From assembly GCA_964016885.1 (NCBI GenBank), contig OZ024746.1, positions 93,496,001 to 93,560,000 on the forward strand: a stretch of 64,000 nucleotides of DNA, written 5' to 3'. Below the pieces are notes generated by a model. That model saw only the letters and a program-made list of their open reading frames with translations, was not told where the DNA came from and did no database searches. Source of the stretch: Eledone cirrhosa (taxonomy: Eukaryota). Of the stretch, positions 13,870 through 59,459 are shown piece after piece. A program made the translations under genes and the position numbers. The first letter of the stretch is position 1; every line of letters starts with the position of its first letter.

Positions 13870-14624
13870 TTAAGCACTATAATGTTGATGTGGGTGTGTA
13901 GTTAAGAAGTTCATTCTGTACTCAAATTTACCAAAGTATGTGAATAAAATTTTCAAGATGAAAACTGTAGAAACCCATCATATGGACTATACCTGTTTCT
14001 GGTCCTTGCAACCTTAAGTGGATGGTACTCTGTTGCAAACATTTGAACCAGATCTCAAGTGTGAGAACAACTTATTGTTTTGCTTCTTACTGGATTGAAC
14101 ACCAAGCTAATAAATGAATGCCTATGTGGTCACTTGACCAGTGAAAAATAGCAGTCATATTTTCCTCAAACTATGCACTACCATTATTTTTTAAAGATGT
14201 TAACTTTGCCTTTCATCCTTACGGGGTCGATAAAATAAAGTACCAGTAATACACTGGGTAATTGCTGGCCTTGTGCCTATATAAGAAACCATTATTTTTT
14301 AAAGATGCAGATAATATAGGTCAAGTTACGTTATTCATGAAATATATATAAAGACAGGATGTTCAGGGCTTGAATATGAATTAATCATAGTTCTACTCAA
14401 TCAGAGGAGACATGAAAGCTTAACAGCAACATCTCACCATTGGATTTTTTTCTCCCATTCCCTCTGCCAGTTTTGAAGGCCCTGTAGAAAGATCGTGGCA
14501 CCTATCCTGGCCCCTTCTGACTTAAATATCAAAATAAATATATTATATATTAAGCAAGTCTTTCCTACTGTACTGATGTGAAACTTGGAGGACAATAAAG
14601 AAGATACAGTAGAAGATCCAGACA

Positions 14625-14875
14625 TTCTGCAGAGGAAGTGAAGCTGGATTGGACATAACTTCAGGAAACCAGCATCCATCACCACATGACAAGCGCTGAA
14701 CTGGAACCTGTGGGGTAAGAGATAGAGAGGCTGGCTCTGCGGCAGCTTGAGAGGTAACACTGTGGCTGAATTAAGAAAACTGGTAGCCAACTGGAGTGGA
14801 GTGGTGAGAGCAGCCCAGGATCGTGTATAATCATGGAGGGTCATCAATGGCCTATGCTCCACGGAGAACTGAATG
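14625..14875 (+). pseudogene. RTE (BovB/SR2-like) LINE 3' fragment
   Basis: RK*SWIGHNFRKPASITT*QALNWNLWGKR*RG...AAQDRV...INGLCS matches W.WIGHTLRK....ITRQAL.WNP.GKR.RGRP. Confidence 0.75.
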
Positions 14876-15248
14876 AGGAATAAAAGTCCTTCCAGTCATT
14901 ACATTTAACTTATAATACAAAACAGATGAAAGATCATGACTGATGCAGTAATTGAATCTATGTCTTAATTGTTTATGAAAAAAAAAAGTGAAATTTTCCT
15001 TACTTTTCCTTAACCTCCCTCCCTCTCTTTCTTTCTTTCTCTTTTACAATCACTTATGTTTCATATTTATATCTTAATACATCTATATTGACTACTCATT
15101 CTTGTGGCCATCAATACTAAGTAGATATATACATACATATATATGTACATATATATATATATATATATATAACGAAGGAGTTGTGGTAAGGAACCAGATG
15201 GATCATAACGCACCAGAGTACTCAATACTTAGGGTAGTAGAGTGGGTA

Positions 15249-15363
15249 ATAGGAAAATGTTCAAGACCCCGTCGGCAGAGCTCAAGCCGTTTCGACGGCT
15301 ATTTCAGTCCAGAAATAGCCGTCGAAATGGCTTAAACTCAGCCGTCAGGGTCTTGAACATTTT

Positions 15364-15368
<5 letters not shown>
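15249..15368. repeat. 120-bp hairpin/palindrome abutting (TA)n
   Basis: 57-bp arms (ATAGGAAAATGTTCAAGACCC...GACGGCTATTTC / GAAATAGCCGTC...GGGTCTTGAACATTTTCCTAT), 6-nt loop, about 6 mismatches. Confidence 0.9.
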
Positions 15369-15443
<75 letters not shown>

Positions 15444-15477
15444 AAGAAATTAAAAGATGGTTAAAAAAAGTTCCATA

Positions 15478-15548
15478 TATTTTATTATGCGCATTTCAAA
15501 AACAAATATCATCCTGGGACGATAGTTGCGTTCTCATCAGATAAAATA
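15478..15548 (-). ncRNA. Type I hammerhead ribozyme (left arm)
   Basis: Reverse-complement twin of 15580-15650; one variant converts a U-G to a C-G pair in stem II. Confidence 0.75.
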
Positions 15549-15579
15549 AGGTAACATGATATGATGCCTAAAAATACCT

Positions 15580-15650
15580 TATTTTATCTGATGAGAATGC
15601 AACTATCGTTCCAGGATGATATTTGTTTTTGAAATGCGCATAATAAAATA
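15580..15650 (+). ncRNA. Type I hammerhead ribozyme (right arm)
   Basis: TATTTTAT-CTGATGA-[36-nt hairpin]-GAAA-TGCGCA-TA-ATAAAATA: 8-bp stem I, palindromic stem III ATGCGCAT, predicted cleavage after 15642. Confidence 0.8.
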
Positions 15651-15775
15651 TATGGAACTTTTTTTAACCATCTTTTAATTTCTTCTTATATATACTCCCG
15701 TCCAATAAACTGTTGAGTGTTACTTATCTGATATATGCATAGTTTTATTGTTCTACAATAAAACTCACCTCCTAC

Positions 15776-15852
<77 letters not shown>

Positions 15853-15855
<3 letters not shown>

Positions 15856-16344
15856 TGTTATACTTTGTGAGGGTCATGTTGCCAATAAGAAACACATGCA
15901 CCAGTTGCTTTCACTTCAATTTATTATAAATTAAATTTATAAATTTAGGAATTTATAAATTTCCGGTTGGTTGGTTGGTTCCACAACCAGACGATTGTTC
16001 ATATATTATCAAAGTTCTTTCGTCACACATTCTGTGACTTCTTCAGTGCCTGGGATTCTTGTCTTTGTTTTTGTGCCTCTCCTTTGTTCTGTCCTACGCC
16101 ATCTTGTTTTTGTGTGTGTTGTGTGCTTAGTTTGTGCATGTGTTACATCCGGGTGTCTGTGTGTGTTTATATTTGTTTATTTATTTGTTTATTTACATGT
16201 TACTGGTTGGTTGTTTGTTCTATGTGTGTGTGTGTTTTCACTTTGTCCTTAATTGTAAGTTGTGATGTTGCTATTCCAAAGTATAACAATATCGGTTTCA
16301 ACACACGTTTTCAGATAAAGAATCTTGCTAAACAAATTCAGAAA

Positions 16345-16345
<1 letters not shown>
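15853..16345 (-). mobile_element. Penelope-like pLTR family copy with hammerhead (16008-16050, minus) and inverted tail
   Basis: Minus: CTGAAGA-aGTCACagaatgtGTGAC-GAAA-GAAC-TT; tail CAAAGTATAACAATAT present in both orientations (15853 and 16277). Confidence 0.7.
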
Positions 16346-16418
<73 letters not shown>

Positions 16419-16527
16419 CCAATTTCACATCAAATGGAACAAAACCGTCTAACCCATGCTAGCGTAGAAGATGGACGTTAAACGATGATGATGATGATGA
16501 TGATATTATATATATATTATATATCGA

Positions 16528-16863
16528 AGACTCCCTTCGGTCATGAATGACCATGTGATTTGCACCTAGAAAGTTTCCCTCTGAGGCACAAGTCCGGACA
16601 AGGTTGTTTGTAGAAGACCAGCAGTCGTCCATGTATACCAGTCTCCCCCCCCCCCTCCATGCCACCGATGTCCAAGGAAAAGGCAATGGCCGATATAACA
16701 TGACACCAGTGATGTCGCAACTCATTTCTACAGCTGAGTGAACTGGAGCAATGTGAAATAAAGTCTCTTGCTCAAGGACACAACGCATCACCCGGTCCGA
16801 GAATCGAACGCACAACCTTTTGATTGCAAGCCCAATGCTCTAACCATTAAGCCATGCGCCTTC
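16528..16863 (-). mobile_element. CORE-type tRNA SINE with a different 3' half (partial copy at 40425-40540)
   Basis: Same head and core as family B, then GACTGCTGGTCTTC...TTTCTAGGTGCAA...GGTCATTCATGACCGAAGGG. Confidence 0.8.
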
Positions 16864-17714: not shown

Positions 17715-18580
17715 AAGCCCTTGGACTTTGCGTTCACCGCCATCTACCAGCTGGGCATTAGTATCGATGGAACATCCACCTCGGCGTTCTATAGAGGGCT
17801 AGTGGAGGGAAAGAGCGACGACGTTCTCGGGGAGACTCTGGGCGTTGAAGACGATCAGCTGTTCGCTCTCTTCAAGAGAACTTTCAGACCGGGGCCTATG
17901 GACAACTTCCAGAAATCTCTGGCCTGACAGTGCTACCGGGATGGGGGGGGGGGGGGGGGGGGGGGGCGTTACTAGTTTGGGATAAGCTCTACAGGCACGG
18001 AGGTGCTGTCAGCCGAGCCTGTTCGAGATGCGCGCAGGGCGACGAAGCTGTCCTGCACGCACTCGTTCAGTGCCCGAGTATTGCTGACTTGTGGAGCTAT
18101 GTCGAACAGCTGCTGTCGCGTGTAGGACGGATCCGGTTATCGACTGAGGCCATTGTGCAGATAATCCCGCCATCCTCCTTTAAAGAGGAGGAAGGGCAGG
18201 CAGTTTTCATCTGCCTGGTGGCCATGGCGAAAGAGATTGTGGTGGACAAGGTTGAAAGGGTTGAAGACGGACACTTTCCTCTTCGGCCAATCCCAGATTA
18301 ACTTTTTCAAGTTTCACTTGAAGAGGAAAATCAGGGTGGAGAGGTAAGTGCTGCCTTCTAGCAAGTTTGTTGAAAGGTGGGTGAATGTAGCGAGAATGGT
18401 CCGAATGAACGGGACCGCTCTGAATATACGCCTGTAGTTTCAGAAATGGAAAAATTGAGAGAGGACGCTTGCCCTAGTGGTCAGGGTGGCCGTTGTCTTT
18501 TGTGTGGTTTTTGCCACGAGTAACCCTCAGAGGTTTCACCCCTATTGGAGAATTTTTAAATTGTTTCAATTTTCATTTGT

Positions 18581-20309: not shown

Positions 20310-20918
20310 TGTGTGCTGGGTGGCCTGGACCTCTGGAAGGGTACCTAAGCAATGGCAATCAGGAGTGATAATCCCAATTTTCAAAAAGGGAGACAAGAGA
20401 GATTGTTCCAATCACAGAAGGATCTCCTTGTGAAGCCTCCCTGGTAAAGTTTATGCTAAGTGTCTGGCAAAGAGATGCAGGAAGATTGTCAAGTCCAAGT
20501 TAGCTGATGAACAGTGTGGTTTTCTACCCAGGATGTAGCACAACCAACCAAATATTCATACTGTGGCAGGTTTTTGAGAAATCGTGGGAGTATTGCCAAG
20601 AAGTATATTCTTGTTTTGTAGACCTTGAAAAGGCATATGACCCTGTTCTTCGAGACCTGCTGTGGAAGGCTGTGCAGGAGTATGGGATTGATGGTCAGCA
20701 CCTTGCTGCTCTGATGTCTCTGTACAAATGCCCAAGTATTTGTGTTTGGATAAATGGTGCTAAATCTAAACCATTCAATGTGGGAGACAGACTCCACCAA
20801 GGGTGGGTACTGTCACCACTCCTGTTCATTATTTACATGAACAGGATTGATATGTGCAACCGGGTTGGAAGTGGTATCATGGCTGGTGGATGTAAAATCA
20901 GTTGGCAGGAATTTGCAG
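20310..20918 (+). pseudogene. RTE (Expander-like) reverse transcriptase fragment
   Basis: WQSGVIIPIFKKGDKRDCSNHR.ISL...EQCGF..GCSTTNQIF.L...FVDLEKAYD...QGWVLSPLLFIIYM; truncated at the FADD motif by a (GGT/GAT)n array. Confidence 0.9.
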
Positions 20919-20919
20919 G

Positions 20920-23165
20920 CAATGATGGTGATAATGGTGGGGGTGGTGGTGGTGGTGGTGGTGGTGGTGGTAATGATGGTCAGGATAATGGCAGTGGCAG
21001 TGATGATGGTGGGGATAATGGTGGTTGTGATGGTGGGGCATAATGGTGGTGATGGTGATGGTGGTGATGGTGGTGATAATTGTGGTGGTAGTGGTAATGG
21101 TGGGGATAATGGTGGAAATGGTGGTGGTGGTAATAGTGGTGAGGATAATGGCAGTAGTGGTGATGATGGTGGGGATAATGGTGGTGGAGGTGTTGATGGT
21201 GGGGATAATGGTGGTGATTGTGGTGGTAATGGTGGTGGGGATAATGACAGTGGTGATGATGATGGTGGTGGTGGGGGGGGGGTCTGGCAAGGATAATGGT
21301 GAAGTTGATAAGGATGAGAATGATGAAAACGAGATATTGGCGATGGTTCTAATTGAGAAGATAATGAGAGCTATTTGATTTTTATTGATTTGATTGTATG
21401 ATAATATCCCTGCTACCACTACTACCACCACCACCCCATCACCACCACCACTACCACCGCCTCTACTACCACCACCACCACCACCACTACCACCACCACT
21501 GCCACTACCACCACCACTACCACCACCACTGCCTCTACTACCATCACTACCCCCCCACACACACACACCACTACCACCACCACCACCTCTACTACCATCA
21601 CTACCCCCCCCCAACACCACTACCACCAACTCTACTACCACCACCACTATCACCACCACCACCGCCACTACCACCACCACCACCACCTCTACTACCATCT
21701 CTACCCCCCCCCCACCCCACCACCACCTCTATGTTATTAGTATTGTCTCTTTACATGTGCCATTTACAACTATTTAACATTAAGAATACAGAAGATATGG
21801 TGGAGAAATATTTTAATGTTAAATATATGATTTCTTTTGATACGAACCCACCCTAAACTAACTTTCATCACCATCATCACCACCACCACCATCATCACCA
21901 CCACCATCACCACCACCATCATCATCACCACCATCACCACCACTACCATCACCACCACCACCATCACCACCACAACCATCACCATCATCACCACCACCAC
22001 CACCACCACCACCACCACCACCATCACCACCACTGCCATCACGCCCACCATCATCATCACCACCACCACCATCACCCCCCCCCCCATCACAACCCCCCCC
22101 CACACCACCACCACCACCATCACCACCACCACCACCACCACGACCATCACCATAACCACCACCACCATCATCACCACCACCACCACCAGCATCACCACCA
22201 CATCCACCACCACCACCAACACCACCATCACCACCACCATCACCACCACCATCACCCCCACCACCACCATCATCACCACCACCACCACCATCATCACCAC
22301 CACCACCATCACCACCACCACCACCACCATCACCCCCACCACCACCATCATCACCACCACCACCACCATCATCACCACCACCACCACCATCATCACCACC
22401 ACCACCACCACCATCATCACCACCACCATCACCACTACCACCATCACCACCACCACCATCATCACCACCACCACCACCATCACCACCACCACCACCACCA
22501 TCATCACCACCACCACCACCACCATCATCACCACCACCATCACCACCACCACCATCACCACCACCACCATCATCACCACCACCACCACCATCACCACCAC
22601 CACCACCACCATCATCACCACCACCATCACCACCACCACCATCACCACCACCAACACTATCACCACCACCACCATCATCACCACCACCACCACCATCATC
22701 ACCACCACCATCACCACCACCACCATCACCACCACCACCATCACCACCACCACCACCACCATCATCACCACCACCATCACCACCACCACCATCACCACCA
22801 CCACCACCACCATCATCACCACCACCATCACCACCACCACCATCACCACCACCACCATCACCACCACCACCATCATCACCACCACCACCACCATCATCAC
22901 CACCACCACCACCACCATCACCACCACCACCACCACCACCACCACCACCACCACCACCATCATCACCACCACCACCACCACCACCATCATCACCACCACC
23001 ACCACCACCACCACTATCACCACCACCACCACCACCACCACCATCACCACCATCACCAGCCCCACCACCACCACCATCATCACCACCACCACCACCACCA
23101 CCACTATCACCACCACCACCACCACCACCACCATCACCACCATCACCAGCCCCATCACCATCATC
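20920..23165. repeat. Trinucleotide arrays: (GGT/GAT) 20920-21290, (ACC/ACT) 21415-21730, (CAC/CAT) 21866-23165
   Basis: Direct inspection. Confidence 0.95.
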
Positions 23166-23529: not shown

Positions 23530-24660
23530 GTATTTTATTGTGGCACCAACACTACCACTTTACAGGGTGGGCTGGGTACACTTTATTGTGGTGCCAACAC
23601 TACCACTTTACAGGGTGGGCTGGGTACACTTTATTGTGGTGCCAACACTACCACTTTACAGGGTGGGCTGGGTACACTTTATTGTGGTGCCAACACTACC
23701 ACTTTACAGGGTGGGCTGGGTACACTTTATTGTGGTGCCAACACTACCACTTTACAGGGTGGGCTGGGTACACTTTATTGTGGTGCCAACACTACCACTT
23801 TACAGGGTGGGCTGGTACAGTTTATTGTGGTGCCAACACTACCACTTTACAGGGTGGGCTGGTACACTTTATTGTGGTGCCATCACTACCACTTTACAGG
23901 GTGGGCTGGTACACTTTATTGTGGTGCCATCACTACCACTTTACAGGGTGGACTGGTACACTTTATTGTGGTGCCATCACTACCACTTTACAGGGTGGGC
24001 TGGTACACTTTATTGTGGTGCCATCACTACCACTTTACAGGGTGGGCTGGTACACTTTATTGTGGCACCAACACTACCACTTTACAGGGTGGGCTGGTAC
24101 ACTTTATTGTGGTGCCAACACTACCACTTTACAGGGTGGGCTGGGTACACTTTATTGTGGCACCAACACTACCACTTTACAGGGTGGACTGGTACACTTT
24201 ATTGTGGTGCCAACACTACCACTTTACAGGGTGGGCTGGTACACTTTATTGTGGTGCCATCACTACCACTTTACAGGGTGGGCTGGTACACTTTATTGTG
24301 GTGCCATCACTACCACTTTACAGGGTGGACTGGTACACTTTATTGTGGTGCCATCACTACCACTTTACAGGGTGGGCTGGTACACTTTATTGTGGTGCCA
24401 TCACTACCACTTTACAGGGTGGGCTGGGTACACTTTATTGTGGTGCCAACACTACCACTTTACAGGGTGGGCTGGTACACTTTATTGTGGTGCCATCACT
24501 ACCACTTTACAGGGTGGGCTGGTACACTTTATTGTGGTGCCATCACTACCACTTTACAGGGTGGGCTGGTACACTTTATTGGGGTACTAACACTACCACT
24601 TTACAGGGTGGGCTGGGTACAGTTTATTGTGTACCAGCACTACTGCCTTACAGGGTGAAC
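23530..24660. repeat. 47-48-bp minisatellite (~23 copies) grown inside a SINE/LINE-tail sequence
   Basis: Unit GTGCCAACACTACCACTTTACAGGGTGGGCTGGGTACACTTTATTGTG; preceded by a decayed GATGCCCTTCCTAATGCCAAC box and (CAT)n tail. Confidence 0.95.
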
Positions 24661-31019: not shown

Positions 31020-31845
31020 CTAGGGGAGGGTAAAATTCCCGAGATCCATGGACGAGTTCTCTCCAGCGGTCTCTGTCCCTCATTATCGCTGCCATGTCCT
31101 GCATCTCCAACAGACCAGTGTCTGTCCTTAGGGCATCAACATACTTTAACCTTGGTCTTCCTCTTCCAGTGTGTCAATGTAGGGGCTCCCACAGGAGCAC
31201 TGAGTGCAATTTCAACTCTGGATGTCGGTGAGCATGTCCAGCTAAACTCAGTCTCCTCTGTGTCACTTTTGAGCTGACTTTTGGGAGGCTCCCATACAGC
31301 TCTGAGTTTTTCATCCTCTGATTAATGTTCAGAGCCATCCTCAGCATTCTCGTGTAGCACCCTTCCACCATCTGAGTGAGTTTCTTGGTCAGTGTCCAAG
31401 TCTCAGACCCGTACAGCAGCACAGACTCCATGACAGCAATGAAGAGGCGGATTTTCAGGTCTTTACGAAGGTCCGACTTCCACACCGATCTCAAGCTGTG
31501 GCACACCACCCAGGCTTTGCCCTTCCTCTCAACCACATCATCTTCCATATTCCCAATCTTTGCTCCCAAATACAGGAAGCCCTCAACCAATTCTAGCGGC
31601 TTCCCGCCTACATTAGTGATCCCCTCCGGCTTCCCGCCTACATTAGTGATCCCCTCCGGCTTCTCAACATTCCCTACCAGATATTTTGTTTTAGTCTTAT
31701 TCATTCTCAGCCCCACACTCATCGACACAGTCTCAACCTCTTGCATCAAATCCTCTGCCTCCTTCACTGGATTTGTCACCAAAATTATGTCGTCGGCAAA
31801 TTCAGCATCTGATACCTTTTTCGCCTTAACTCTCCTGCTCTGAGC
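31020..31845 (-). pseudogene. RTE-group LINE 3' part (RT motif FADD to C-terminus)
   Basis: [10 protein letters not shown]...[10 protein letters not shown]...FLYLG...[22 protein letters not shown]...RRLSLAGH; in-frame 30-bp duplication [10 protein letters not shown] x2. Confidence 0.9.
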
Positions 31846-31927
31846 ATATATATATATGTGAATATATATATATATATATATATGTATATATGTGAATATA
31901 TATATATATGTATATATATATATATGA

Positions 31928-32003
<76 letters not shown>

Positions 32004-32317
32004 CATCTCCATTTAACATCAATTTTCTGTTAGACAGGTCATCGACGTTATGTGACAGGTCAAGCTAGTTGGCTGCACTGTACTGTCCTCAAATGGCAGG
32101 GATTTTTACAGCTCGATGCCCTTCCTAACACTAAAATTGTTTACATATGGTGCAGCCAACTGGCCAGACCCTCCTCATAATGCTACCACCCAGCTCCACA
32201 CTGTAAACATGGTTAGTGTTAGGAAGGGCATCCAGGAGCTGTAAAAAAACCTGCCTAACCCATGCAAGCATGGAAAAATAGATGTTAAAAGGTGATGATG
32301 ATGATGATTTCCCACCC

Positions 32318-36619: not shown

Positions 36620-37375
36620 CAACCACTTTACAGTATGAACTGGGTGCTTTTCATCAAAAGACCTACTCAGCCACTCTGCATTGTGGACTGAGCCCTTTTT
36701 GTTGTGACACCTACACAAAACAACTTTACAGTGTGGGTTGGGCCCTTTTTGCTGTGACATCTACACAACCACTTTACAGTGTGTTTTGGGCCCTTTTTGT
36801 TGTGACACCTTCATGACCACTTTACAGTGTGGACTGGGTGCTTTTTGTTGTGACACCTACACAACCACTTTACAGTGTGGACTGTGTGCTTTTTGTTGTG
36901 ACACCTACACAACCACTTTACAGTGTGGATTGGGCCCTTTTTGTTGTGACACCTACACAACCACTTTACAGTGTGGACTGTGTGCTTTTTGTTGTGACAC
37001 CTACACAACCACTTTACAGTGTGGATTGGGCCCTTTTTGTTGTGACACCTACACAACCACTTTACAGTGTGGGTTGGTCCATTTTTGTTGTGACACCTAC
37101 ACAACCACTTTACAGTGTGGATTGGGCGCTTTTTGTTGTGACACCTACACAACCACTTCACAGTGTGGGTTGGGCCATTTTTGTTGTGACACCTACACAA
37201 CCACTTTACAGTGTGGACTGGGCGCTTTTTGTTGTGACACCTACACAACCACTTTGCAGTGTCGGTTGAGCCCTTTTGTTGTGACACCTACACAACCCCT
37301 TTACAGTGTGGACTGGGTGCTTTTTGTTGTGACACCTACACAACCCCTTTACAGTATGGACTGGGCCCTTTTTAT
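36620..37375. repeat. 48-bp minisatellite (~15 copies) within a SINE/LINE-tail sequence
   Basis: Unit GTGACACCTACACAACCACTTTACAGTGTGGACTGGGTGCTTTTTGTT following GGATGCCCTTCCTAATGCCAAC. Confidence 0.95.
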
Positions 37376-38274
37376 TGTAAATATATGAATTAAGAAACCA
37401 GTATTTTTTAGATCCATTCATGAGCTTTATATCGAATGATATTAATATTTGATTAATCAAACAGCCTCATTACACTATGTGTTTTAAACGACAATCATCT
37501 TTTTGTTCTAACATTTGCTTGTTATCAAATTGAATATTAACATTATTCGATATAAAACTCACAAATGCATTTACGTATCTGCTATGTTAGAGCAAAACTA
37601 ATTTCGTTTTTATTTTTTATATATTTTCTGTTAAATCAGGCCAAAATGTTAAGAATTAACTGACATAATAATGTGTAATAAGGATGGTTCCTCATTTGTG
37701 AGATATATCAGTTCTATTGTGAAAATAAACATAACTGCCCTTACAGTTGACCTTATTGCTTCACAGATCTATCGACAGTACAATAAGTGCTAATACAATG
37801 TAGTGAGCAGGATAATTCTAATTAATCAACATTACTCCAAATAAAGGTCAACACTCCATATTGACCTCTCTGGCTTACTATGTACTCTAGGCACTAGGAT
37901 TTTTTTTTTGTCTTTTTTCAAATTTATTTATTTATTTATTAACTAATATTGCAGTGCTTTTTATGTAACAATCTATTTTAGATTATATGTTAAATAGGAA
38001 TTAAACTTGTTCAATTGTTGGTGTAGACCCATGGCAATACCTAGTGAGTAAAAATTATGGATACAATGCATCACTCGGTCCGAGAATTGAACTAGCAACC
38101 TCTCAATTGCAAGTCCATGCCCCTTCCCTTATTTACATACATGCACAGAAGACCTGTCTTCCCTTGCATACAAACCTACAGTCAGTAGGCACCTCTTAAC
38201 CCTATATACTCCCCACCCCACACACCCTACCCCATCCTCCCATTTCTGTCTACTGTGTCAGTGACACAACAAAA

Positions 38275-38835
38275 AGCACCCAGTCCACACTGTAAGGTGG
38301 TCGTGTAGGAGACACGGTAAAAAGGCTCCCAGTCCACACTGTAAGGTGGTCGTGTAGGAGACATGGTAAAAAGGCTCCCAGTCCACACTGTAAGGTGGTC
38401 GTGTAGGAGACACGGTAAAAAGGCTCCCAGTCCACACTGTAAGGTGGTCGTGTAGGAGACATGGTAAAAAGGCTCCCAGTCCACACTGTAAGGTGGTCGT
38501 GTAGGAGACACGGTAAAAAGGCTCCCAGTCCACACTGTAAGGTGGTCGTGTAGGAGACACGGTAAAAAGGCTCCCAGTCCACACTGTAAGGTGGTCGTGT
38601 AGGAGACACGGTAAAAAGGCTCCCAGTCCACACTGTAAGGTGGTCGTGTAGGAGACACGGTAAAAAGGCTCCCAGTCCACACTGTAAGGTGGTCGTGTAG
38701 GAGACACGGTAAAAAGGCTCCCAGTCCACACTGTAAGGTGGTCGTGTAGGAGACACGGTAAAAAGGCTCCCAGTCCACACTGTAAGGTGGTCGTGTAGGA
38801 GACACGGTAAAAAGGCTCCCAGTCCACACTGTAAA
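38275..38835. repeat. 49-bp minisatellite (~11.5 near-identical copies) in an RTE 3' UTR-like sequence (38150-38985)
   Basis: Unit CAGTCCACACTGTAAGGTGGTCGTGTAGGAGACACGGTAAAAAGGCTCC, followed by GGAAGGGCATCC and a (GAT)n tail. Confidence 0.95.
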
Positions 38836-41211: not shown

Positions 41212-43206
41212 ATAATTAGAAATGTGTGGGTAGGGTGAGGAGTGGTGGGGTGAGAGTGGGTGGAGAGAAGAGAAGTGGGCTCATAATATGTCATCTAATG
41301 TACCTTTAACCCCTGACTGAGTCCTAGGGAGTGGGCTCATAATATGTCATCTAATGTACCTTTAACCCCTGACTGAGTCCTAGGGAGTGGACTCATAATA
41401 TGTCATCTAATGTACCTTTAACCCCTGACTGAGTCCTAGGGAGGGACTCATAATATGCCATCTAATGTACCTTTAACCCCTGACTGAGTCCTAGGGAGTG
41501 GACTCATAATATGTCATGTAATGTACCTTTAACCCCTGACTGAGTCCTAGGGAGGGGACTCATAATATGCCATCTAATGTACCTTTAACCCCTGACTGAG
41601 TCCTAGGGAGGGGACTCATAATATGCCATCTAATGTACCTTTAACCCCTGACTGAGTCCTAGGGAGGGACTCATAATATGCCATCTAATGTACCTTTAAC
41701 CCCTGACTGAGTCCTAGGGAGTGGACTCATAATATGTCATGTAATGTACCTTTAACCCCTGACTGAGTCCTAGGGAGGGGACTCATAATATGCCATCTAA
41801 TGTACCTTTAACCCCTGACTGAGTCCTAGGGAGTGGACTCATAATATGTCATCTAATGTACCTTTAACCCCTGACTGAGTCCTAGGGAGGGACTCATAAT
41901 ATGCCATCTAATGTACCTTTAACCCCTGACTGAGTCCTAGGGAGTGGACTCATAATATGTCATGTAATGTACCTTTAACCCCTGACTGAGTCCTAGGGAG
42001 TGGACTTATATTATGTCATCTAATGTACCTTTAACCCCTGACTGAGTCCTAGGGAGTGGACTTATATTATGTCATCTAATGTACCATCACTTTTATATTG
42101 TGAATATCTGGTTTAGACTAGTTACATCATATCACTGTTGTTGTAACATGTAAATAAAAGGGTTGGAACAAGTTCGGGCAATCAACAATAAAACATTACC
42201 TCAAATGATTAAGTCTGTTATAGAGCCCACAAGACTAACCTTTTGCCTTAGTATGAGATATGGCCTAAGATACTTGTTGTTCTTGTTGTCTTTTAGGAAA
42301 CAGGATTGAGAATATGAAACTAGTAGTAATAACTTGTGAAGCTTTTAATCCTTTAGTTACCAATCCGGATAAAACTGGCTCTGGTTCTCTGAAATATAAC
42401 CACCCATTTTAACCCTTTAGAATTCACTTTACTCTATATATACTATTGTATTTTGGTAGTAAACACTTTATCTTACATAATTATCTCATATAATATCGAA
42501 TCTATGATGTTATTTATTTTGAGAACAATACCTTAACATCAGTATGAGTGGCCAGTTACAGCCGATTTAAACAGAAAGAGGCGAGACATTTCTGGCCGGA
42601 TATGGCCGGTTTGAATGCTAAAGGGTTAAAGGTTTCCAATTTAAAGTAAAATCTTCCAACATAATTTTATATAAGAACCTTACATTAAGTTACTATCTTA
42701 GTAATGAAATAATTAATAATTTTAGTAAATCCTTCAAAATTCTTCATTAATTGTGATCGATAAATAAAGTATCAGTCAATTCTCACTCCCACACTCTCTC
42801 TCTCTCCTTCTCGTTCTCCCTCTTGCTCTCTCTCCCTCTCTATCTCTTTCTCGATCTCCCTCTTGATGCCCCCCCCCCCTTCTCTCTCTCTCTCATAAAT
42901 TGGCTGTGTTCAGACATCAAAAGGGGTGGTATTGGCCAGGTTTAAATGCCTGGGACATATTCTATATCCTTATGGTGCTCCTAGGACTCAGTCAAGGGTT
43001 AATGGTACATGAGATGGCACATTATGAGCCCACTCCCTAGAACTCAGTCAGGAGACTAGGGTACATGAAATGGCACATTATGAACCTCTCTCACTAGGAC
43101 TCAGTCAGGAGTCTAGGGTACATGAGATGGTTTATTATGAGCCCCTCCCCACACACACACACACATACACATACACACCCCTCCTCACCCACACACTTCT
43201 AATTAT
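41212..43206. mobile_element. Candidate foldback-type element with asymmetric subterminal 56-bp tandem arrays
   Basis: Termini ATAATTAGAAATGTGTGGG / CCCACACACTTCTAATTAT; ~14.5 copies of a 56-bp unit at 41275-42085 and ~3 inverted diverged copies at 42978-43148. Confidence 0.6.
42413..42625. mobile_element. MITE family 1 nested in a TTAA of MITE family 2 (42349-42752)
   Basis: TTAA duplicated at 42409-42412 and 42626-42629; the host copy at 13037-13269 has a single TTAA at the same place. Confidence 0.85.
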
Positions 43207-45894: not shown

Positions 45895-46512
45895 TGGTTG
45901 TTGCTGTAGTTGTTGTTGTTGTTGTTGGTGGTGGTGGTGTTGGTAGTGTGGTGGGGGTGTTGTTGGTGGTGTTGTTGGTGGTGGTGTTGTTGGTGGTGGT
46001 GTTGTTGGTGTGGTGCGGATGTTGGTGGTGTTGTTGTTGGTGGTGGTGTTGGTGGGGGTGTTGTTGGTGGTGTTGTTGTTGTTGGTGGTGGTGTTGTTGT
46101 TGGTGTGGTGGGGGTGGTGTTGGTGGTGTTGTTGTTGGTGGTGGTGGTGTTGTTGGTGGTGGTGTTGTTGGTGTGGTGCGGATGTTGGTGGTGTTGTTGT
46201 TGGTGGTGGTGTTGGTGTGGTGGGGGTGTTGTTGTTGGTGGTGGTGGTGTTGTTGGTGTGGTGGGGGGTGTTGTTGGTGGTGTTGTTGTTGTTGGTGGTG
46301 TTGTTGTTGTTGGTGGTGGTGGGGGTGTTGTTGGTGTGGTGGGGGTATTGTTGGTGTGGTGGGGGTGTTGTTGGTGGTGTTGTTGTTGTTGTTGGTGGTG
46401 GTGTTGTTGGTGTGGTGGGGGTGTTGTTGGTGGTGGTGTTGTTGTTGTTGGTGGTGTTGTTGTTGTTGTTGGTGTGGTGGGGGTGTTGTTGGTGTGGTGG
46501 GGGTGTTGTTGG

Positions 46513-46573
<61 letters not shown>

Positions 46574-48530
46574 GGTGTTGGTGTGGTGGTGGTGGTGTTG
46601 GTGTGGTGGGGGTGTTGTTGGTGGTGTTGTTGTTGTTATTGTTGGTGGTGTTGTTGTTGGTGGTGGTGGTGTTGTTGGTGTGGTGGGGGTGGTGTTGTTG
46701 TTGTTGGTGGTGGTGGTGTTGGTGGTAGCGTTGTTGGTGGTGATGTTGTTGTTGTTGGTGGTGGTGTTGTTGGTGTGGTGGGGGTGTTGTTGGTGGTGTT
46801 GTTGTTGGTGGTGTTGTTGTTGGTGGTGGTGGTGTTGTTGGTGTGGTGGGGGTGGTGTTGTTGTTGTTGGTGGTGGTGGTGTTGGTGGTAGCGTTGTTGG
46901 TGGTGATGTTGTTGTTGTTGGTGGTGGTGTTGTTGGTGTGGTGGGGGTGTTGTTGGTGGTGTTGTTGTTGGTGGTGGTGGTGTTGTTGGTGTGGTGGGGG
47001 GTGTTGTTGGTGGTAGCGTTGTTGGTGGTGGTGGTGTTGGTGGTGTTGGTGTGGTGGGGGTGTTGGTGGTGGCATTGGTGGTGGTGATGGTGATGGTGTT
47101 GGTGGTGGTGGTGTTGGTGGTGGCGTTGTTGGTGGTGATGTTGGTGGTGGCGTTGCTGGTGGCGTTGGTGGTGGTGGTGTTGGTGGTGTTGGTGATGGTA
47201 TTGGTGGTGTTGGTGATGGTGATGGTGTTGGTGGTGTTGTGATGGTGGTGGTGGTGTTATTAGTGTTGGTGGTGGTGGTGTTGGAGGTGGTGTTGGTGAT
47301 GTTGGTGGTGGTGGAGGTGTTGTTGATGGTGTTGGTGGTGGTGTGGTGTACATGTTGGTGTTGGTGGTGGTGTTGGTGTTGTTATTAGTGGTGTTGTTTT
47401 TGTTCCTGTTGTTGTTAGTGTTGTTGTTGTTAGTGACGTTGTTGTTAGTGTTGTTGTTAGTATTGTTATTAGTGTTATTGTTAGTGTTGTTGTTAGTGTT
47501 GTTGTTAGTGTTATTGTTAGTGTTGTTATTAGTGTTATTGTTAGTGTTGTTGTTAGTGTTGTTGTTAGTGTTATTGTTAGTGTTATTGTTAGTGTTATTG
47601 TTAGTGTTGTTATTAGTGTTGTTGTTAGTGTTATTGTTAGTGTTGTTGTTAGTGTTGTTGTTAGTATTGATATTAGTGTTATTGTTAGTGTTGTTGTTAG
47701 TGTTGTTGTTAGTATTGTTATTAGTGTTGTTGTTAGTGTTGTTGTTAGTGTTATTGTTAGTTTTGTTATTAGTGTTATTGTTAGTGTTACTGTTATTGTT
47801 AGTGTTGTTGTTAGTGTTATTTTTAGTATTGTTGTTAGTATTGTTATTAGTGTTGTTGTTGTTATTAGTGTTATTGTTAGTGTTGTTATTAGTGTTCCTG
47901 TTGTTGTTGTTGTTGTTATTAGTGTTCCTGTTGTTGTTGTTGTTGTTATTAGTGTTCCTGTTGTTGTTGTTGTTGTTATTAGTGTTCCTGTTGGTCCTGT
48001 TGTTGTTGTTGTTATTAGTGTTCCTGTTGTTGTTGTTGTTGTTATTAGTGTTCCTGTTGTTGTTGTTATTAGTGTTCCTGTTGGTCCTGTTGTTGTTGTT
48101 GTTATTAGTGTTCCTGTTGTTGTTGTTGTTATTAGTGTTCCTGTTGGTCCTGTTGTTGTTGTTGTTATTAGTGTTCCTGTTGTTGTTGTTGTTATTAGTG
48201 TTCCTGTTGGTCCTGTTGTTGTTGTTGTTATTAGTGTTCCTGTTGTTGTTGTTGTTGTTGTTATTAGTGTTCCTGTTGGTCCTGTTGTTGTTGTTGTTAT
48301 TAGTGTTCCTGTTGTTGTTGTTGTTGTTATTAGTGTTCCTGTTGTTGTTGTTGTTGTTATTAGTGTTCCTGTTGTTCCTGTTGTTGTTGTTGTTGTTATT
48401 AGTGTTCCTGTTGGTCCTGTTGTTGTTGTTGTTATTAGTGTTCCTGTTGTTGTTGTTGTTGTTATTAGTGTTCCTGTTGTTGTTGTTGTTGTTATTAGTG
48501 TTCCTGTTGGTCCTGTTGTTGTTGTTGTTA
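45895..48530. repeat. 2.6-kb GT-rich simple repeat with graded unit change
   Basis: GGT/GTT mosaic, then (GTGTTGTTGTTA)n, then (GTT)nATTAGTGTTCCT units. Confidence 0.95.
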
Positions 48531-49741: not shown

Positions 49742-50705
49742 ATCATCATCATCATTATCATACGTCCACTTTTCCCTGCTTGCAAGGGTGGGACGGGTCT
49801 TATTCAGCACAGCATCTCTCCACTCGTCACGGTCCTTCGTCATCTCCACCGTGAACTTCAATGATCTGAGGTCTGTTCTCACCACCTCCGCCCATGTTTT
49901 TCATGGTCTACCTCTACCACGTCTTCCTTCAACTGGCATTTCCTGACACTTCTTCACCCATCGGTCATCCTCCATGCGCATCACATGTCCATACCACCTC
50001 AGTCTCCTCTCCCGTACACTACATTCTATCCCTCTCAGACACAGTTTCTCTCTCAACACATTTATGCTTGGTCGTTCATGCACATTGACATTGCACATCC
50101 AACGGAGCATGCTTGCCTCATTTCTCTCCAACTGTCGCATATCCTCTGCAGTTGCTGTCCATGTCTCACTACCATGCAGCATCGTGCTCCTCACACAGGC
50201 ATCATATAACCGGCCTTTCGTACGCAGGGAGAAACCCTTCTTCGTCAGCAGAGGAAGCAGCTCCCTAAACTTCTTCCAACCCATCCTTATTCTAGATACT
50301 ATGGCCTCGGAACACCCTCCTCCCATGCTAATCTGATCTCCTAGGTACCGGAAGCTATCCACCACTTCTATAGCGCCCTCCTGCATTTGAAAAATGTGTC
50401 TATCAATGCGACTTCTACTGTCTAATTTCCCTGTACACCTACTGCATACATATTTCTCCCTACCTGTTAGTTTGCCTGCTATCCCGCTACATCTCTTGTG
50501 TACCCAGGATCTGCATTGTGTGCATTTTATAGAATTTATGCCAGTTCCTTTTCTGCATATCAAACATGGCCATTTCCCTGACGGAATCAGAGTTTTGTCC
50601 TCTTTTCTACTCATCAACACTTTTGTCTTAGCTAGGTTCACTCTCAGTCCTCTTGCTTCCAACTGCTGTTTCCATAGCCAGAATTTATTCTCTAGCTCCT
50701 CTAAA
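49742..50705 (-). pseudogene. RTE family A LINE, 5'-truncated, with PHD-like Cys/His finger following the RT core
   Basis: GLRVNLAKTK...WPCLICRKGTGINSIKCTQCRSWVHKRCSG...YVCSRC...FRYLGD...LHGSETW...RRLRWYGHVMRM; (GAT)n tail. Confidence 0.9.
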
Positions 50706-50868
50706 AATACACAAGATCGTACAACCATTTCAGCCCTTCATATCAGCACCTCTACTGTCCTAGAACCAGTACTGTAACTATTAGCACCACCAACATAATT
50801 AACACTACCTGATCTACAGCTCTGATTACTCCCACCACTACCAGCATTGTATTATTACCACAAATGTT

Positions 50869-53545: not shown

Positions 53546-53629
<84 letters not shown>

Positions 53630-53632
<3 letters not shown>

Positions 53633-54394
53633 TAGTTAAGCAAAACAAGACCACAAATTTCACAAGGAAGACATTATTAAAAGATTGTCAACATATTTAG
53701 TTTGATGCAAAGAATGTAGAGAATAATAATAATAATAATATTAATAATAATAATGCCCGTTTACAATTCTTTCGCTACTCCTTATAATATTTCAAGATCA
53801 GATGACTATGTATCATAATTGATCTGGTTCAGTTGAAAATAATTAACATATTTAAAAAAAACAGAGTGGCTCATCGGAACTCAAAGGAATATAAATTAAA
53901 ATAATGTTACATAATATAATGTTCCATATATTAGTTTTTACTATGGTGCCTTTGTTTCATCAGCTGTCAGCCATAATAAAGCAGTACTCATCTGCCTCAG
54001 TACTCAGATCTCACACAATGCAGCCTCGACAGATGAGTACTGCTTGATTATGGCTGACAGCTGATGAAACGAAGGCACCATAGTAAAAACTAATATATGG
54101 AACATTATATTATGTAACATTATTTTAATTTATATTCCTTTAAGTTCCGATGAGCCACTCTGTTTTTTTTAAATATGTTAATTATTTTCAACTGAACCAG
54201 ATCAATTATGATACATAGTCATCTGATCTTGAAATATTATAAGGAGTAGCGAAACAATTGTAAACGGGCATTATTATTATTAATATTATTATTATTATTA
54301 TTCTCTACATTCCTTACATCAAACTAAATATGTTGACAATCTTTTAATAATGTCTTCCTTGTGAAATTTGTGGTCTTGTTTTGCTTAACTAATG
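53630..54394. mobile_element. 765-bp near-perfect foldback element adjoining (TA)n
   Basis: Arms 53630-53994 and 54030-54394 (365 bp, about 6 mismatches seen), 35-nt spacer, no ORF. Confidence 0.9.
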
Positions 54395-54575
54395 AATATT
54401 TCCAGCTCTGCGCACCTAACTTCTGCATGAACCCAGCCACCTAGCTGCTTTCTACTGCATATTGCACATTGAGCACATGCCTTTACGCTTTGGCTTCTAA
54501 CTAACTCACCAATCTTTCCTCTCATATCTCCTCTACTATCTCAATCTCTCTCTTTAAGATTGGTTACTCTTGAAC

Positions 54576-54652: not shown

Positions 54653-55229
54653 TAGCCGAATTACCCGCGCCTTGCTGCGTTTCACACATTTTTTTGTAAG
54701 AAAATGATGATTGATTTTAAATCAGTGATATAATTTATGGAGAAAAACTCTGCATTTCAATATTACTCAATGTAAAATGTTATGCATGAAAAATTGGAAA
54801 ACATTATTTTTTGTAATATATCAAATCGAAATTACATTATTAAATCTTATTCTTATTTTGTTTCTTGTAATTAATTTTTTTCAAAATATCAATTCAAAAC
54901 TTGATCATTATTTTATTTGGGCTTCCAATATTTTCACTATAGGGGGTTTAACCCCATTAGGATGTCTTAATATTATTGAAATTTGCTGAAATTTTGTGAA
55001 TAGGTCATTTACCTATGGTTTAAATATCATATAAATCGAAAGGAAAAAGTTTCAGCAGGGGTTTGTGCCCCCGGAGAACCCTTTGATTAAAATGAAATAT
55101 ACTTATCCAAGTACCCTGGGCAATGTAGTTTCAGAATATATATAGTTAGGGGGAGTCTATCTCAAAAACCATAGCAGGAGTTTGTGAACAAACAAACAAA
55201 CAGACAGACAGGAGTAGAGTGTATTTAAT
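54652..55229 (-). mobile_element. Non-autonomous Helitron-like element
   Basis: On minus ends with a GC-rich hairpin-like segment then CTAG-T; (CTGT/TTGT)n near the other end. Confidence 0.55.
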
Positions 55230-55529
55230 AACAAAGTGGAGCTGTTGCATAATAGATTTATTGTTCAATCCTGGTTACAAATGTTTCAACAAACAGCTGG
55301 TTTCTGATCTGGATGATGCTCCAGACCAGATTCCAAAACGGTCTGATCCTCAGATAAGTGTTTTCTCAACATCTGATATAGGTTTTTGTTGTGATAACAC
55401 TGGTCTGAGGATCAGGCTGTTTTGGAATCTGCTCTGGAAGCATCAATCTGGATCATGAGCCGGCTGTTTGTGAAACATTTGTAACCAGGATCGAACAATA
55501 AATCTCTTATGTAACACCTCCACTTTGTT
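55230..55529. mobile_element. Diverged foldback element with a hammerhead motif in each arm
   Basis: ~142-bp arms (AACAAAGTGGAG... / ...CTCCACTTTGTT), short spacer 55372-55386. Confidence 0.8.
55400..55488 (+). ncRNA. Type I hammerhead-like ribozyme with ~60-nt stem II
   Basis: CTGGT-CTGAGGA-[long hairpin]-GAAA-CATTTG-TA-ACCAG; the twin on minus (55271-55358) has a better stem II (TCTGGTCTGGA/TCCAGATCAGA) but a broken stem I. Confidence 0.65.
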
Positions 55530-55711
55530 CTTGTTATATATGTTTATATGTATATATACATATATATAAATCTTATTTCTTTTCTATTATAAGTTGAGCC
55601 AACTTATGCAGCTTCATATGCAAATGAGATTAATCACCTCATTTACACAGACGTAAAACTATATATTCTCGGCTGTTTTCAAGTCCAGCAGTTGCAAGTG
55701 TGGGAGGGATC

Positions 55712-56003: not shown

Positions 56004-56074
56004 GTCGTCAAGTATTAAATTTGTAGAAATTTGAAAAAAGAAAACAAATTTCTACAAATTTCATACTTGACGAC
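56004..56074. repeat. 30-bp inverted repeat hairpin beside (TA)n
   Basis: GTCGTCAAGTATTAAATTTGTAGAAATTTG / CAAATTTCTACAAATTTCATACTTGACGAC. Confidence 0.9.
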
Positions 56075-58718: not shown

Positions 58719-58786
58719 TATATGATAAGGATTCGGGACATCGACAGCTGAGTTCCTGCCATGTCAACAGCTATATATATATATAT

Positions 58787-59059
58787 AATATATTAACAAA
58801 TGGAAAGTATATTTATAAAACCATATTTATTTCATTATACATATTTCAAGGACACCAAAGCAAATTATGGTGCGCTTTCATCAGATATATATAGATCAGT
58901 TTTATAAAACTGATCTATAATATAGATCAGTTTTATAAAACGGATCTATATTATATTTTATCTGATGAAAGCGCACCATAATTTGCTTTGCTGTCCTTGA
59001 AATATGTATAATGAAATAAATATGGTTTTATAAATATAGTTTCCATTTGTTAATATATT
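58787..59059. mobile_element. Foldback element with hammerhead motifs in both arms and a doubly palindromic spacer
   Basis: ~100-bp arms; spacer = two copies of palindrome TATAGATCAGTTTTATAAAACTGATCTATA (58890-58919, 58921-58950). Confidence 0.85.
58954..59018 (+). ncRNA. Type I hammerhead ribozyme (right arm)
   Basis: TATTTTAT-CTGATGA-[30-nt hairpin]-GAAA-TATGTA-TA-ATGAAATA; twin on minus at 58828-58887 has a shortened stem I. Confidence 0.7.
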
Positions 59060-59149
59060 GTATTTTTACTTCAAAAATTTGTTGAGTGCTTTATATCAGT
59101 TATAAAAAATATTTGCTTGTTGTATCCCAACAAATTAAATATAACTTCT

Positions 59150-59235
<86 letters not shown>

Positions 59236-59327
59236 CTGTTGACATGGCAGGAACTCAGTCGGTGTCCTGAATACATAATTCTATACATACATATATACAT
59301 GTATACATACATACATGTATACATGTA

Positions 59328-59447
59328 TACATACTCAGACACACAGGTATAGGTGCATGTGAGTGTGCAGACACTTATATACATATATATATATATAAGA
59401 GTCTGCGCACTCACATGCACCTACACCTGTGTGTCTTTGAGTATGTA
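59328..59447. repeat. Inverted repeat element centred on (TA)n
   Basis: CATACTCAGACACACAGGTATAGGTGCATGTGAGTGTGCAGAC / GTCTGCGCACTCACATGCACCTACACCTGTGTGTCTTTGAGTATG. Confidence 0.85.
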
Positions 59448-59459
59448 TGTATGTATGTT

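Follow-up and report, generated by a model that had tools for sequence, protein, structure and literature searches.

Two head-to-head ends of a Penelope-like retrotransposon probably form a hammerhead-bearing foldback in the genome of Eledone cirrhosa

Penelope-like elements (PLEs) are retrotransposons for which inverted, 5′-truncated copies with a tail of 30–40 bp, often at one end only, are described as typical (PMC8557442). The clade closest to the locus presented here is Hydra, with members such as Penelope-13_HM and Hydra-1_Obim. It is characterized by a reverse transcriptase (RT) bearing a GIY-YIG endonuclease at the C-terminus, RWx and DKT motifs, a CxCX5C linker, CxxC and CxH motifs, insertion into (TA)n and a type I hammerhead at the 3′ end; for Penelope-13_HM, a 5′-truncated inverted copy with a hammerhead on both strands is documented in the supplement (PMC8557442). 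Dual minimal hammerheads on opposite strands, 100–700 bp apart, were reported in 2014 (PMC4209133), and PLE hammerheads of this type showed no cleavage as monomers and low cleavage as dimers (PMC4209133; PMC6765202; PMC6466107).

Insertions of Penelope/Poseidon and Naiad elements likewise comprise an inverted, head-to-head 5′-truncated copy, a tail at one end and two fixed 3′ ends (PMC3846280; PMC8557442; PMC11167929). The in vitro activities of a PLE protein from an anole include cleavage and extension of both strands of the target; its reverse transcription begins at two internal sites on the RNA, between which the tail lies, and insertion takes place without a need for the hammerhead (PMC11167929). 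The origin of the inverted pLTRs and one-sided tails of PLEs is described as unresolved (PMC8557442). A further related group are the non-LTR retrozymes, ORF-less and PLE-derived sequences with a type I hammerhead (10.64898/2026.07.22.740005).

Here, we describe a foldback in a window of 64,000 nucleotides from Eledone cirrhosa (contig OZ024746.1, positions 93,496,001 to 93,560,000), which an earlier note, made from the sequence alone, had presented as a distinct foldback element with a hammerhead ribozyme on each strand. Very probably, the locus goes back to one insertion event of a Hydra-type Penelope-like retrotransposon, in which two 5′-truncated pLTR ends stand head to head in (TA)n, and its Penelope-like identity is almost certain. 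Since inverted copies, one-sided tails and opposite-strand hammerhead pairs have all been published for PLEs, it is a new instance of a described structure, and the locus itself amounts to a defunct retrotransposon stub of a shape already known. Such stubs resemble MITEs or miRNA hairpins and could therefore be misannotated, in a genome that contains about 50,000 hammerhead motifs. The family also provides large, countable end statistics, i.e. the pairing of its two 3′ ends (A and B, see below), a sharp 5′ stop and few cut ends, for testing the in vitro system of PMC11167929. In the literature searched, we did not find an 88-nt tail, a quantified A+B rule or a sharp 5′ stop; subscription papers and most supplements may contain them.

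Structure of the foldback and its parent element

The palindromic part of the foldback was recovered at the coordinates given in the earlier note (Table 1). Its setting in (TA)n, also part of that description, applies to the left end, which alone adjoins the microsatellite directly; the right arm first continues for 88 nt, a tail that had been overlooked. The 21-nt spacer is the next upstream pLTR sequence of the parent and belongs to the left arm, which reaches 21 nt farther upstream than the start of the right arm.

Table 1. Features of the element and its flanks (positions in the window)
Feature	Position	Strand	Remarks
(TA)n target microsatellite, left flank	15366–15441		38 copies, 100% matches
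Whole element	15441–15775		
Palindromic part of the foldback	15441–15687		247 bp; arms of 113 bp (15441–15553 and 15575–15687), spacer of 21 nt
Left arm: tail-less (A end), 5′-truncated pLTR copy	15441–15574	sense on −	includes the 21-nt spacer
Type I hammerhead motif, left arm	15478–15548	−	common family sequence; predicted cut after 15486
Inversion junction region	15554–15588		junction 15574/15575; unique in genome
Right arm: 5′-truncated pLTR copy	15575–15687	sense on +	
Type I hammerhead motif, right arm	15580–15650	+	two C-to-T changes (15598, 15610); predicted cut after 15642
Stem I of the plus motif	15580–15587/15643–15650	+	
CUGAUGA of the plus motif	15588–15594	+	
Stem II of the plus motif	15595–15630	+	
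GAA of the plus motif	15631–15633	+	
Stem III of the plus motif	15634–15641	+	palindromic
88-nt tail (B end)	15688–15775	+	continues into the ORF start in tandem parent copies
(AT)n target microsatellite, right flank	15776–15855		

A pattern spanning the inversion junction has a single match in the whole genome (3.0 Gb, 1,796 contigs), at this very locus, and the other top-scoring foldback copies carry spacers unlike the one found here. The uniqueness of the junction indicates one 5′-truncated inverted insertion rather than a mobile, MITE-like unit, and the notion of a distinct foldback element with copies sharing the same spacer did not survive this search. The junction is known from the assembly alone: no contig from three DNA runs of one sample extends across the whole stretch, as would be the case if an assembly error had folded the sequence back on itself. 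We regard such an artefact as extremely unlikely, given that the arms differ at two sites (15518/15610 and 15530/15598), terminate at distinct ends characteristic of the family and obey a rule that holds genome-wide (see below), and that in contigs from the same three runs the tail-less end passes into (TA)n at 15694. The sequencing runs listed with the element include no RNA run, from which nothing follows about its expression.

Single-arm copies elsewhere in the genome extend upstream to different lengths into a shared sequence, through which the end of an ORF is reached. With the 247-bp palindrome as query, 914 genome candidates were obtained, of which 40 were scored; with the ORF end as query, there were 2,027 candidates, of which 40 were scored and the best 20 besides the query locus examined. 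The parent unit thus found, of a kind that the earlier note had suggested looking for, measures about 3.74 kb. It is seen in locus L040 and, in tandem directly after a tailed pLTR, in L056 and L043, and its pLTRs occur as partial tandems and as 5′-truncated copies with variable 5′ ends. The full unit in L056 is directly followed downstream by an RT-like frame of 478 codons, which belongs to another Penelope-like family (L056:7438-8871).

Natural ORF pieces of the parent contain the RT motifs FDIASYYSSI, MGSSDSAQ and YRDD. Before the endonuclease, the CxCX5C linker reads CNCPNRTKC (L061, L046, L048), and the endonuclease itself carries CNLC..E..N..CIH, in which CxxC and CxH flank the conserved E and N; it matches the GIY-YIG family PF01541 with an E-value of 0.0054, below the curated cut-off. 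The DKT motif is present in L040 and L043 and reads DKS in L049, while the RW motif is RWI in the parent and RWK or RWR in homologs. The insertion preference of the family is (TA)n. The RT was named neither by Pfam, in six natural ORF pieces of the parent, nor by a PDB sequence search, and Pfam returned nothing informative for four homologs and one neighbouring ORF. Ten unnamed homologs of the parent protein were found, and its Atlas neighbours are of the RVT_1/HTH_animal type (0.94–0.97). A search for a longer protein found none, which is weak evidence.

By these motifs rather than by a tree, the parent matches the definition of Hydra-clade Penelope-like elements (RT with C-terminal GIY-YIG), for which we used the features listed in PMC8557442, section 11. 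It differs from the clade in its RWI motif, compared with RWK, and in its length, about 3.7 kb with a long 3′ UTR compared with generally <3 kb, a figure that PMC8557442 gives as a general tendency only; moreover, tens of thousands of its ends are found in this genome. The Neptune and Nematis clades were considered and rejected, as the parent has no CX2-5CxxC linker and, in an alignment with homologs, no CCHH between GIY and YIG. Relative to Penelope/Poseidon and Naiad insertions as described in PMC3846280, PMC8557442 and PMC11167929, the locus has the longer tail (88 nt vs 30–40 nt), and both of its copies consist of pLTR only, without ORF. Nor is it a retrozyme as described in 10.64898/2026.07.22.740005: these form same-sense tandem arrays, whereas we observe an inverted pair with a unique junction.

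The finding of an RT/GIY-YIG parent bears out the proposal of the earlier note that two PLE pLTR ends, rather than a DNA-transposon MITE, stand head to head at this locus. A Tc1/mariner-like MITE with a TA target, whose inverted repeats resemble hammerheads by chance, would explain the long inverted repeat and the TA at the left end. It is hardly conceivable in view of the asymmetric ends with their 88-nt tail, the non-uniform copies, the continuity of the arm with the RT/GIY-YIG ORF and the covariation of the hammerhead stems; in addition, 45 of the 93 copies analysed below are unpaired within 6 kb.

Hammerhead motifs and their predicted activity

Read outward, each arm has the layout of a type I hammerhead, with an 8-bp stem I, CUGAUGA, a 36-nt stem II, GAA, the self-complementary AUGCGCAU and an AUA triplet; the CUGANGA, GAAA and UH elements of the core are present together with the three stems. 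This layout and the cut position on the plus strand agree with the earlier note, and the mirror position is predicted for the minus strand. The first stem II pair is G.U in the arms of the window, and a search of Rfam, which the note had recommended, yielded no hammerhead family at E ≤ 10 in 14500–16700 or 15570–15665. The miRNA matches returned by Rfam lie far below the gathering scores and reflect the hairpin.

Exact matches to a degenerate pattern of the motif number 49,898 in the genome (25,110 + 24,788), compared with 0 + 0 for a reversed control, so that its occurrence is not due to chance; it is found in several subfamilies that differ in the sequence of stem II. We aligned 25 motifs, three from the window and 22 from 30 pattern-matched loci chosen to reduce duplicates. 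In this alignment, 94.2% of the cells are paired and eight of 22 pairs are changed on both sides (seven in stem II, one in stem III), while stem I shows one-sided changes only. None of 500 shuffles reached the cell count and 102 of 500 reached the pair count; slid controls were 34–57% paired. The alignment thus supports a conserved fold without measuring it, because the search pattern predetermined the core columns and covariation is inflated when sequences are related.

Among the 25 motifs, the first stem II pair is A-U in 14 and G.U in 11; the canonical G10.1-C11.1 pair is not found in this alignment, and a G-C pair is present in some family copies (L012, L016, L018). At the fourth position of stem II, the C of a 1x1 mismatch (15598/15530) is kept in 24 of the 25 motifs and across several subfamilies, next to pairs that covary, and may be regarded as a candidate tertiary contact. 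The single exception is the right arm of the present locus. Both differences between its arms consist of a C in the left and a T in the right arm, and the left arm represents the common family state, as family contigs also have C at 15610. The earlier note had counted one arm difference, a change from U-G to C-G in stem II; the right-arm T is instead a departure from the common C and not compensatory, and the second difference, which had been missed, removes the conserved C of stem II.

Compared with the PLE hammerheads described in PMC4209133, the motifs share the CUGANGA/GAAA core, a long helix II, a palindromic helix III, the location in the pLTR and the occurrence as opposite-strand pairs. 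They differ in the first stem II pair (G.U or A-U instead of G10.1-C11.1), in the C.Y mismatch kept at the fourth position of stem II and in a stem I of eight A/U base pairs. From the Hydra-1_oBim motif, as far as it is given in PMC8557442, they differ by the 36-nt stem II and the fully palindromic 8-nt stem III.

On the level of single arms, folding is no more stable than that of shuffled sequences (z −0.28 and −1.77), and the monomeric hammerhead fold lies 4.8 kcal/mol above its minimum. By contrast, the double hammerhead is the minimum (−29.1 kcal/mol) in a cofold of two plus-arm copies and comes within 0.6 kcal/mol of it for two minus-arm copies (−34.7 vs −35.3). The prediction is thus that activity requires two same-sense copies to dimerize, and this locus cannot supply such a pair in cis. 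In the parent, the hammerhead would likely work as such a dimer via its palindromic stem III; in a transcript of the stub, the antisense arm would come first on either strand, and a long hairpin would form. The computed energies of the full foldback hairpin are −175 and −169 kcal/mol, compared with −68 and −66 when the hammerhead is enforced. This advantage of about 100 kcal/mol, together with the need for a same-sense partner, makes cleavage at the locus unlikely, so that the meaningful competition between self-cleavage and hairpin formation proposed earlier is not expected. Based on these energies and on the published results for monomers and dimers, we infer that neither motif cleaves here; both come from the parent and are expected to be inactive at this locus.

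Two 3′ ends and the origin of the inverted pair

Copies of the family terminate at either of two fixed 3′ points: end A, where the arm stops, and end B, where the tail gives way to (AT)n. The genome contains 22,011 matches to a pattern located immediately downstream of the cut. Of the first 100 listed, we analysed 93, namely 50 copies that stop at A and 43 with the tail. Within 6 kb, they form 24 head-to-head pairs, of which 21 are A+B, two B+B and one A+A, an excess of A+B with p = 1.4e-4 against 0.5. In the subfamily of the window itself, the same combination occurs in 20 of 21 scorable foldbacks (24 loci). Elsewhere in the window, at 58783–59150, a foldback of a sister subfamily has the same hammerhead core (58962, +), a duplicated central piece of 31 bp, and a tail on just one of its arms.

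Within a locus, the two arms resemble each other, which points to a common source. They differ by a median of one change, compared with medians of 4–18 to other loci (25 of 34 loci scorable), and variants found in exactly two of 50 arms lie eight times within one locus and twice across loci; in eight of 25 pairs, an arm is nearer to an arm of another locus than to its partner. Gene conversion could be an alternative source of this likeness.

At the 5′ side, a TC|ATATG site 130–139 nt upstream of the anchor is where 33 of the 93 copies stop; a single copy ends exactly at the ribozyme cut. The preferred site lies 56 nt upstream of the position equivalent to the start of the right arm (15575), and the junction of the present locus is elsewhere. 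Across the genome, the parental base immediately preceding this site is absent from 4,502 sister-subfamily copies, and perfect palindromes centred on it, with an identical 14-nt centre, occur at 1,206 sites compared with 36 in the control; six loci among 100 listed junctions have centres with an overlap of only 2 nt. The base at position −1 is G in 41, T in 44 and A in 15 of the 100 listed junctions (hand count). We considered that the G might derive from a cap; for many of these Gs, however, the inverted partner could have served as template. The hot spot may resemble an initiator element, and the preferred site is possibly the capped start of pLTR transcription.

The cut site of the ribozyme is read through by 15,953 sister-subfamily copies, whereas a different base is found there in 187, with point changes making up about half according to a hand count of 100 listed. 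Cut junctions with C or G before the cut amount to about 18 among 100 listed, compared with seven of 56 one base downstream; this small excess may reflect microhomology or a minor contribution of cleaved templates.

The simplest fit to the end counts is that two nicks prime reverse transcription on one uncleaved RNA, a step for which we see slightly better than even chances. The anole PLE protein provides an in vitro precedent for the cutting of both strands and for two RT start sites (PMC11167929). The protein of the element would nick both strands of the (TA)n target, and each nick would prime on one shared, uncleaved RNA, one at B and the other 88 nt upstream at A. The two cDNAs would stop early, often at the preferred site, which is likely the start of pLTR transcription, and would then be end-joined into an inverted repeat. 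An uncleaved template is favoured by the predominance of copies that read through the cut site, and a route via cleaved RNA would be minor beside it. The three of 24 pairs that break the A+B rule count against two-fold priming.

A specific form of this account is offered tentatively, as we consider it somewhat more likely to be wrong than right: the stubs may record an integration in which a dimeric RT-endonuclease primes a capped, uncleaved pLTR transcript twice (overlapping twin priming), at sites 88 nt apart and once per target strand, whereupon the cDNAs run to an initiator-like 5′ end and join via self-complementary ATAT ends. If true, overlapping twin priming would by itself account for why the pLTR is inverted, why the tail is one-sided and why the hammerhead can be dispensed with. 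We did not find it stated in the literature searched.

The inversion could also have arisen, from the same PLE origin, by self-priming. Here, one cDNA or antisense template would be copied after folding back on itself, and resolution of the second end by the endonuclease at A would leave only one side tailed. Self-priming has been proposed for the palindromic junctions of Penelope (PMC3846280), and the tail has been attributed to endonuclease-mediated resolution (PMC8557442); it would account equally well for the A+B rule and for arms from the same source. We nevertheless consider it unlikely. If one tail-primed cDNA had been copied back on itself, the tailed arm should never be the shorter one at its 5′ end, but this is the case in 13 of 17 unequal A+B pairs in one count and in 7 of 10 in another, made by hand, as well as at this locus. 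Palindrome centres can delete after insertion, and such later deletions could produce the 5′ asymmetry, which weakens the argument. The loop-less centres and those with a 2-nt overlap look like products of end joining and also speak against self-priming.

In a further scenario, the foldback would be a non-autonomous unit that is mobile in the manner of a retrozyme or MITE, with a ribozyme on each strand releasing RNA from either direction. Short foldbacks are indeed very common, and the 1,206 identical centres could be read as copies of such a unit. For the present locus, this scenario is largely refuted by the unique junction, and we judge it very improbable overall: the shared centres follow from the shared 5′ stop and vary in detail, the arms range from <100 bp to several kb and reach into the ORF, outward-facing ribozymes cannot excise a unit with both of its ends, and the hairpin outcompetes them as calculated above. 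Moreover, retrozymes are described as same-sense tandem repeats (10.64898/2026.07.22.740005).

Neighbourhood of the element

Immediately to the left of the element, at 15172–15366, lies a second, unrelated foldback of the same layout, with an inverted part of about 118 bp, a one-sided extension of about 78 nt and (TA)n flanks. It has 1,898 candidates in the genome, the centres of which cluster at one site, and its GAAAC..GUC has the look of a half-hammerhead. A full hammerhead was looked for in this hairpin and not established, since only 44 heterogeneous matches have an upstream CUGANGA, and a parent of this foldback was not found. A near-perfect foldback (775 bp, 95%) adjoins (TA)n at 53625–54399; a CTGATGA near its centre fails the hammerhead scan. 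Further local inverted repeats, matched at 70–89%, are located at 55227–55532, 59319–59456, 32095–32255 and 56004–56074.

A scan of 111 of the 127 open frames did not identify a host gene near the element; it returned RT fragments, one PHD finger and one weak match below the cut-off. The RT-related fragments (zf-RVT, RVT_1) at 17849–18298, 20504–21040 and 31177–32064 belong to other retroelements, and the frame with the PHD finger (PF00628, E 1.6e-6), at 49904–50737 on the minus strand, may be a host exon or the ORF1 of a retroelement. Finally, the window contains very long trinucleotide arrays, namely (TGG)n facing an inverted (CAC)n at 20935–23160 and 2.6 kb of (GTT)n at 45897–48529, as well as minisatellites of 47–57 bp at 23534–24657, 36661–38834 and 41274–43144, some of them in inverted pairs.
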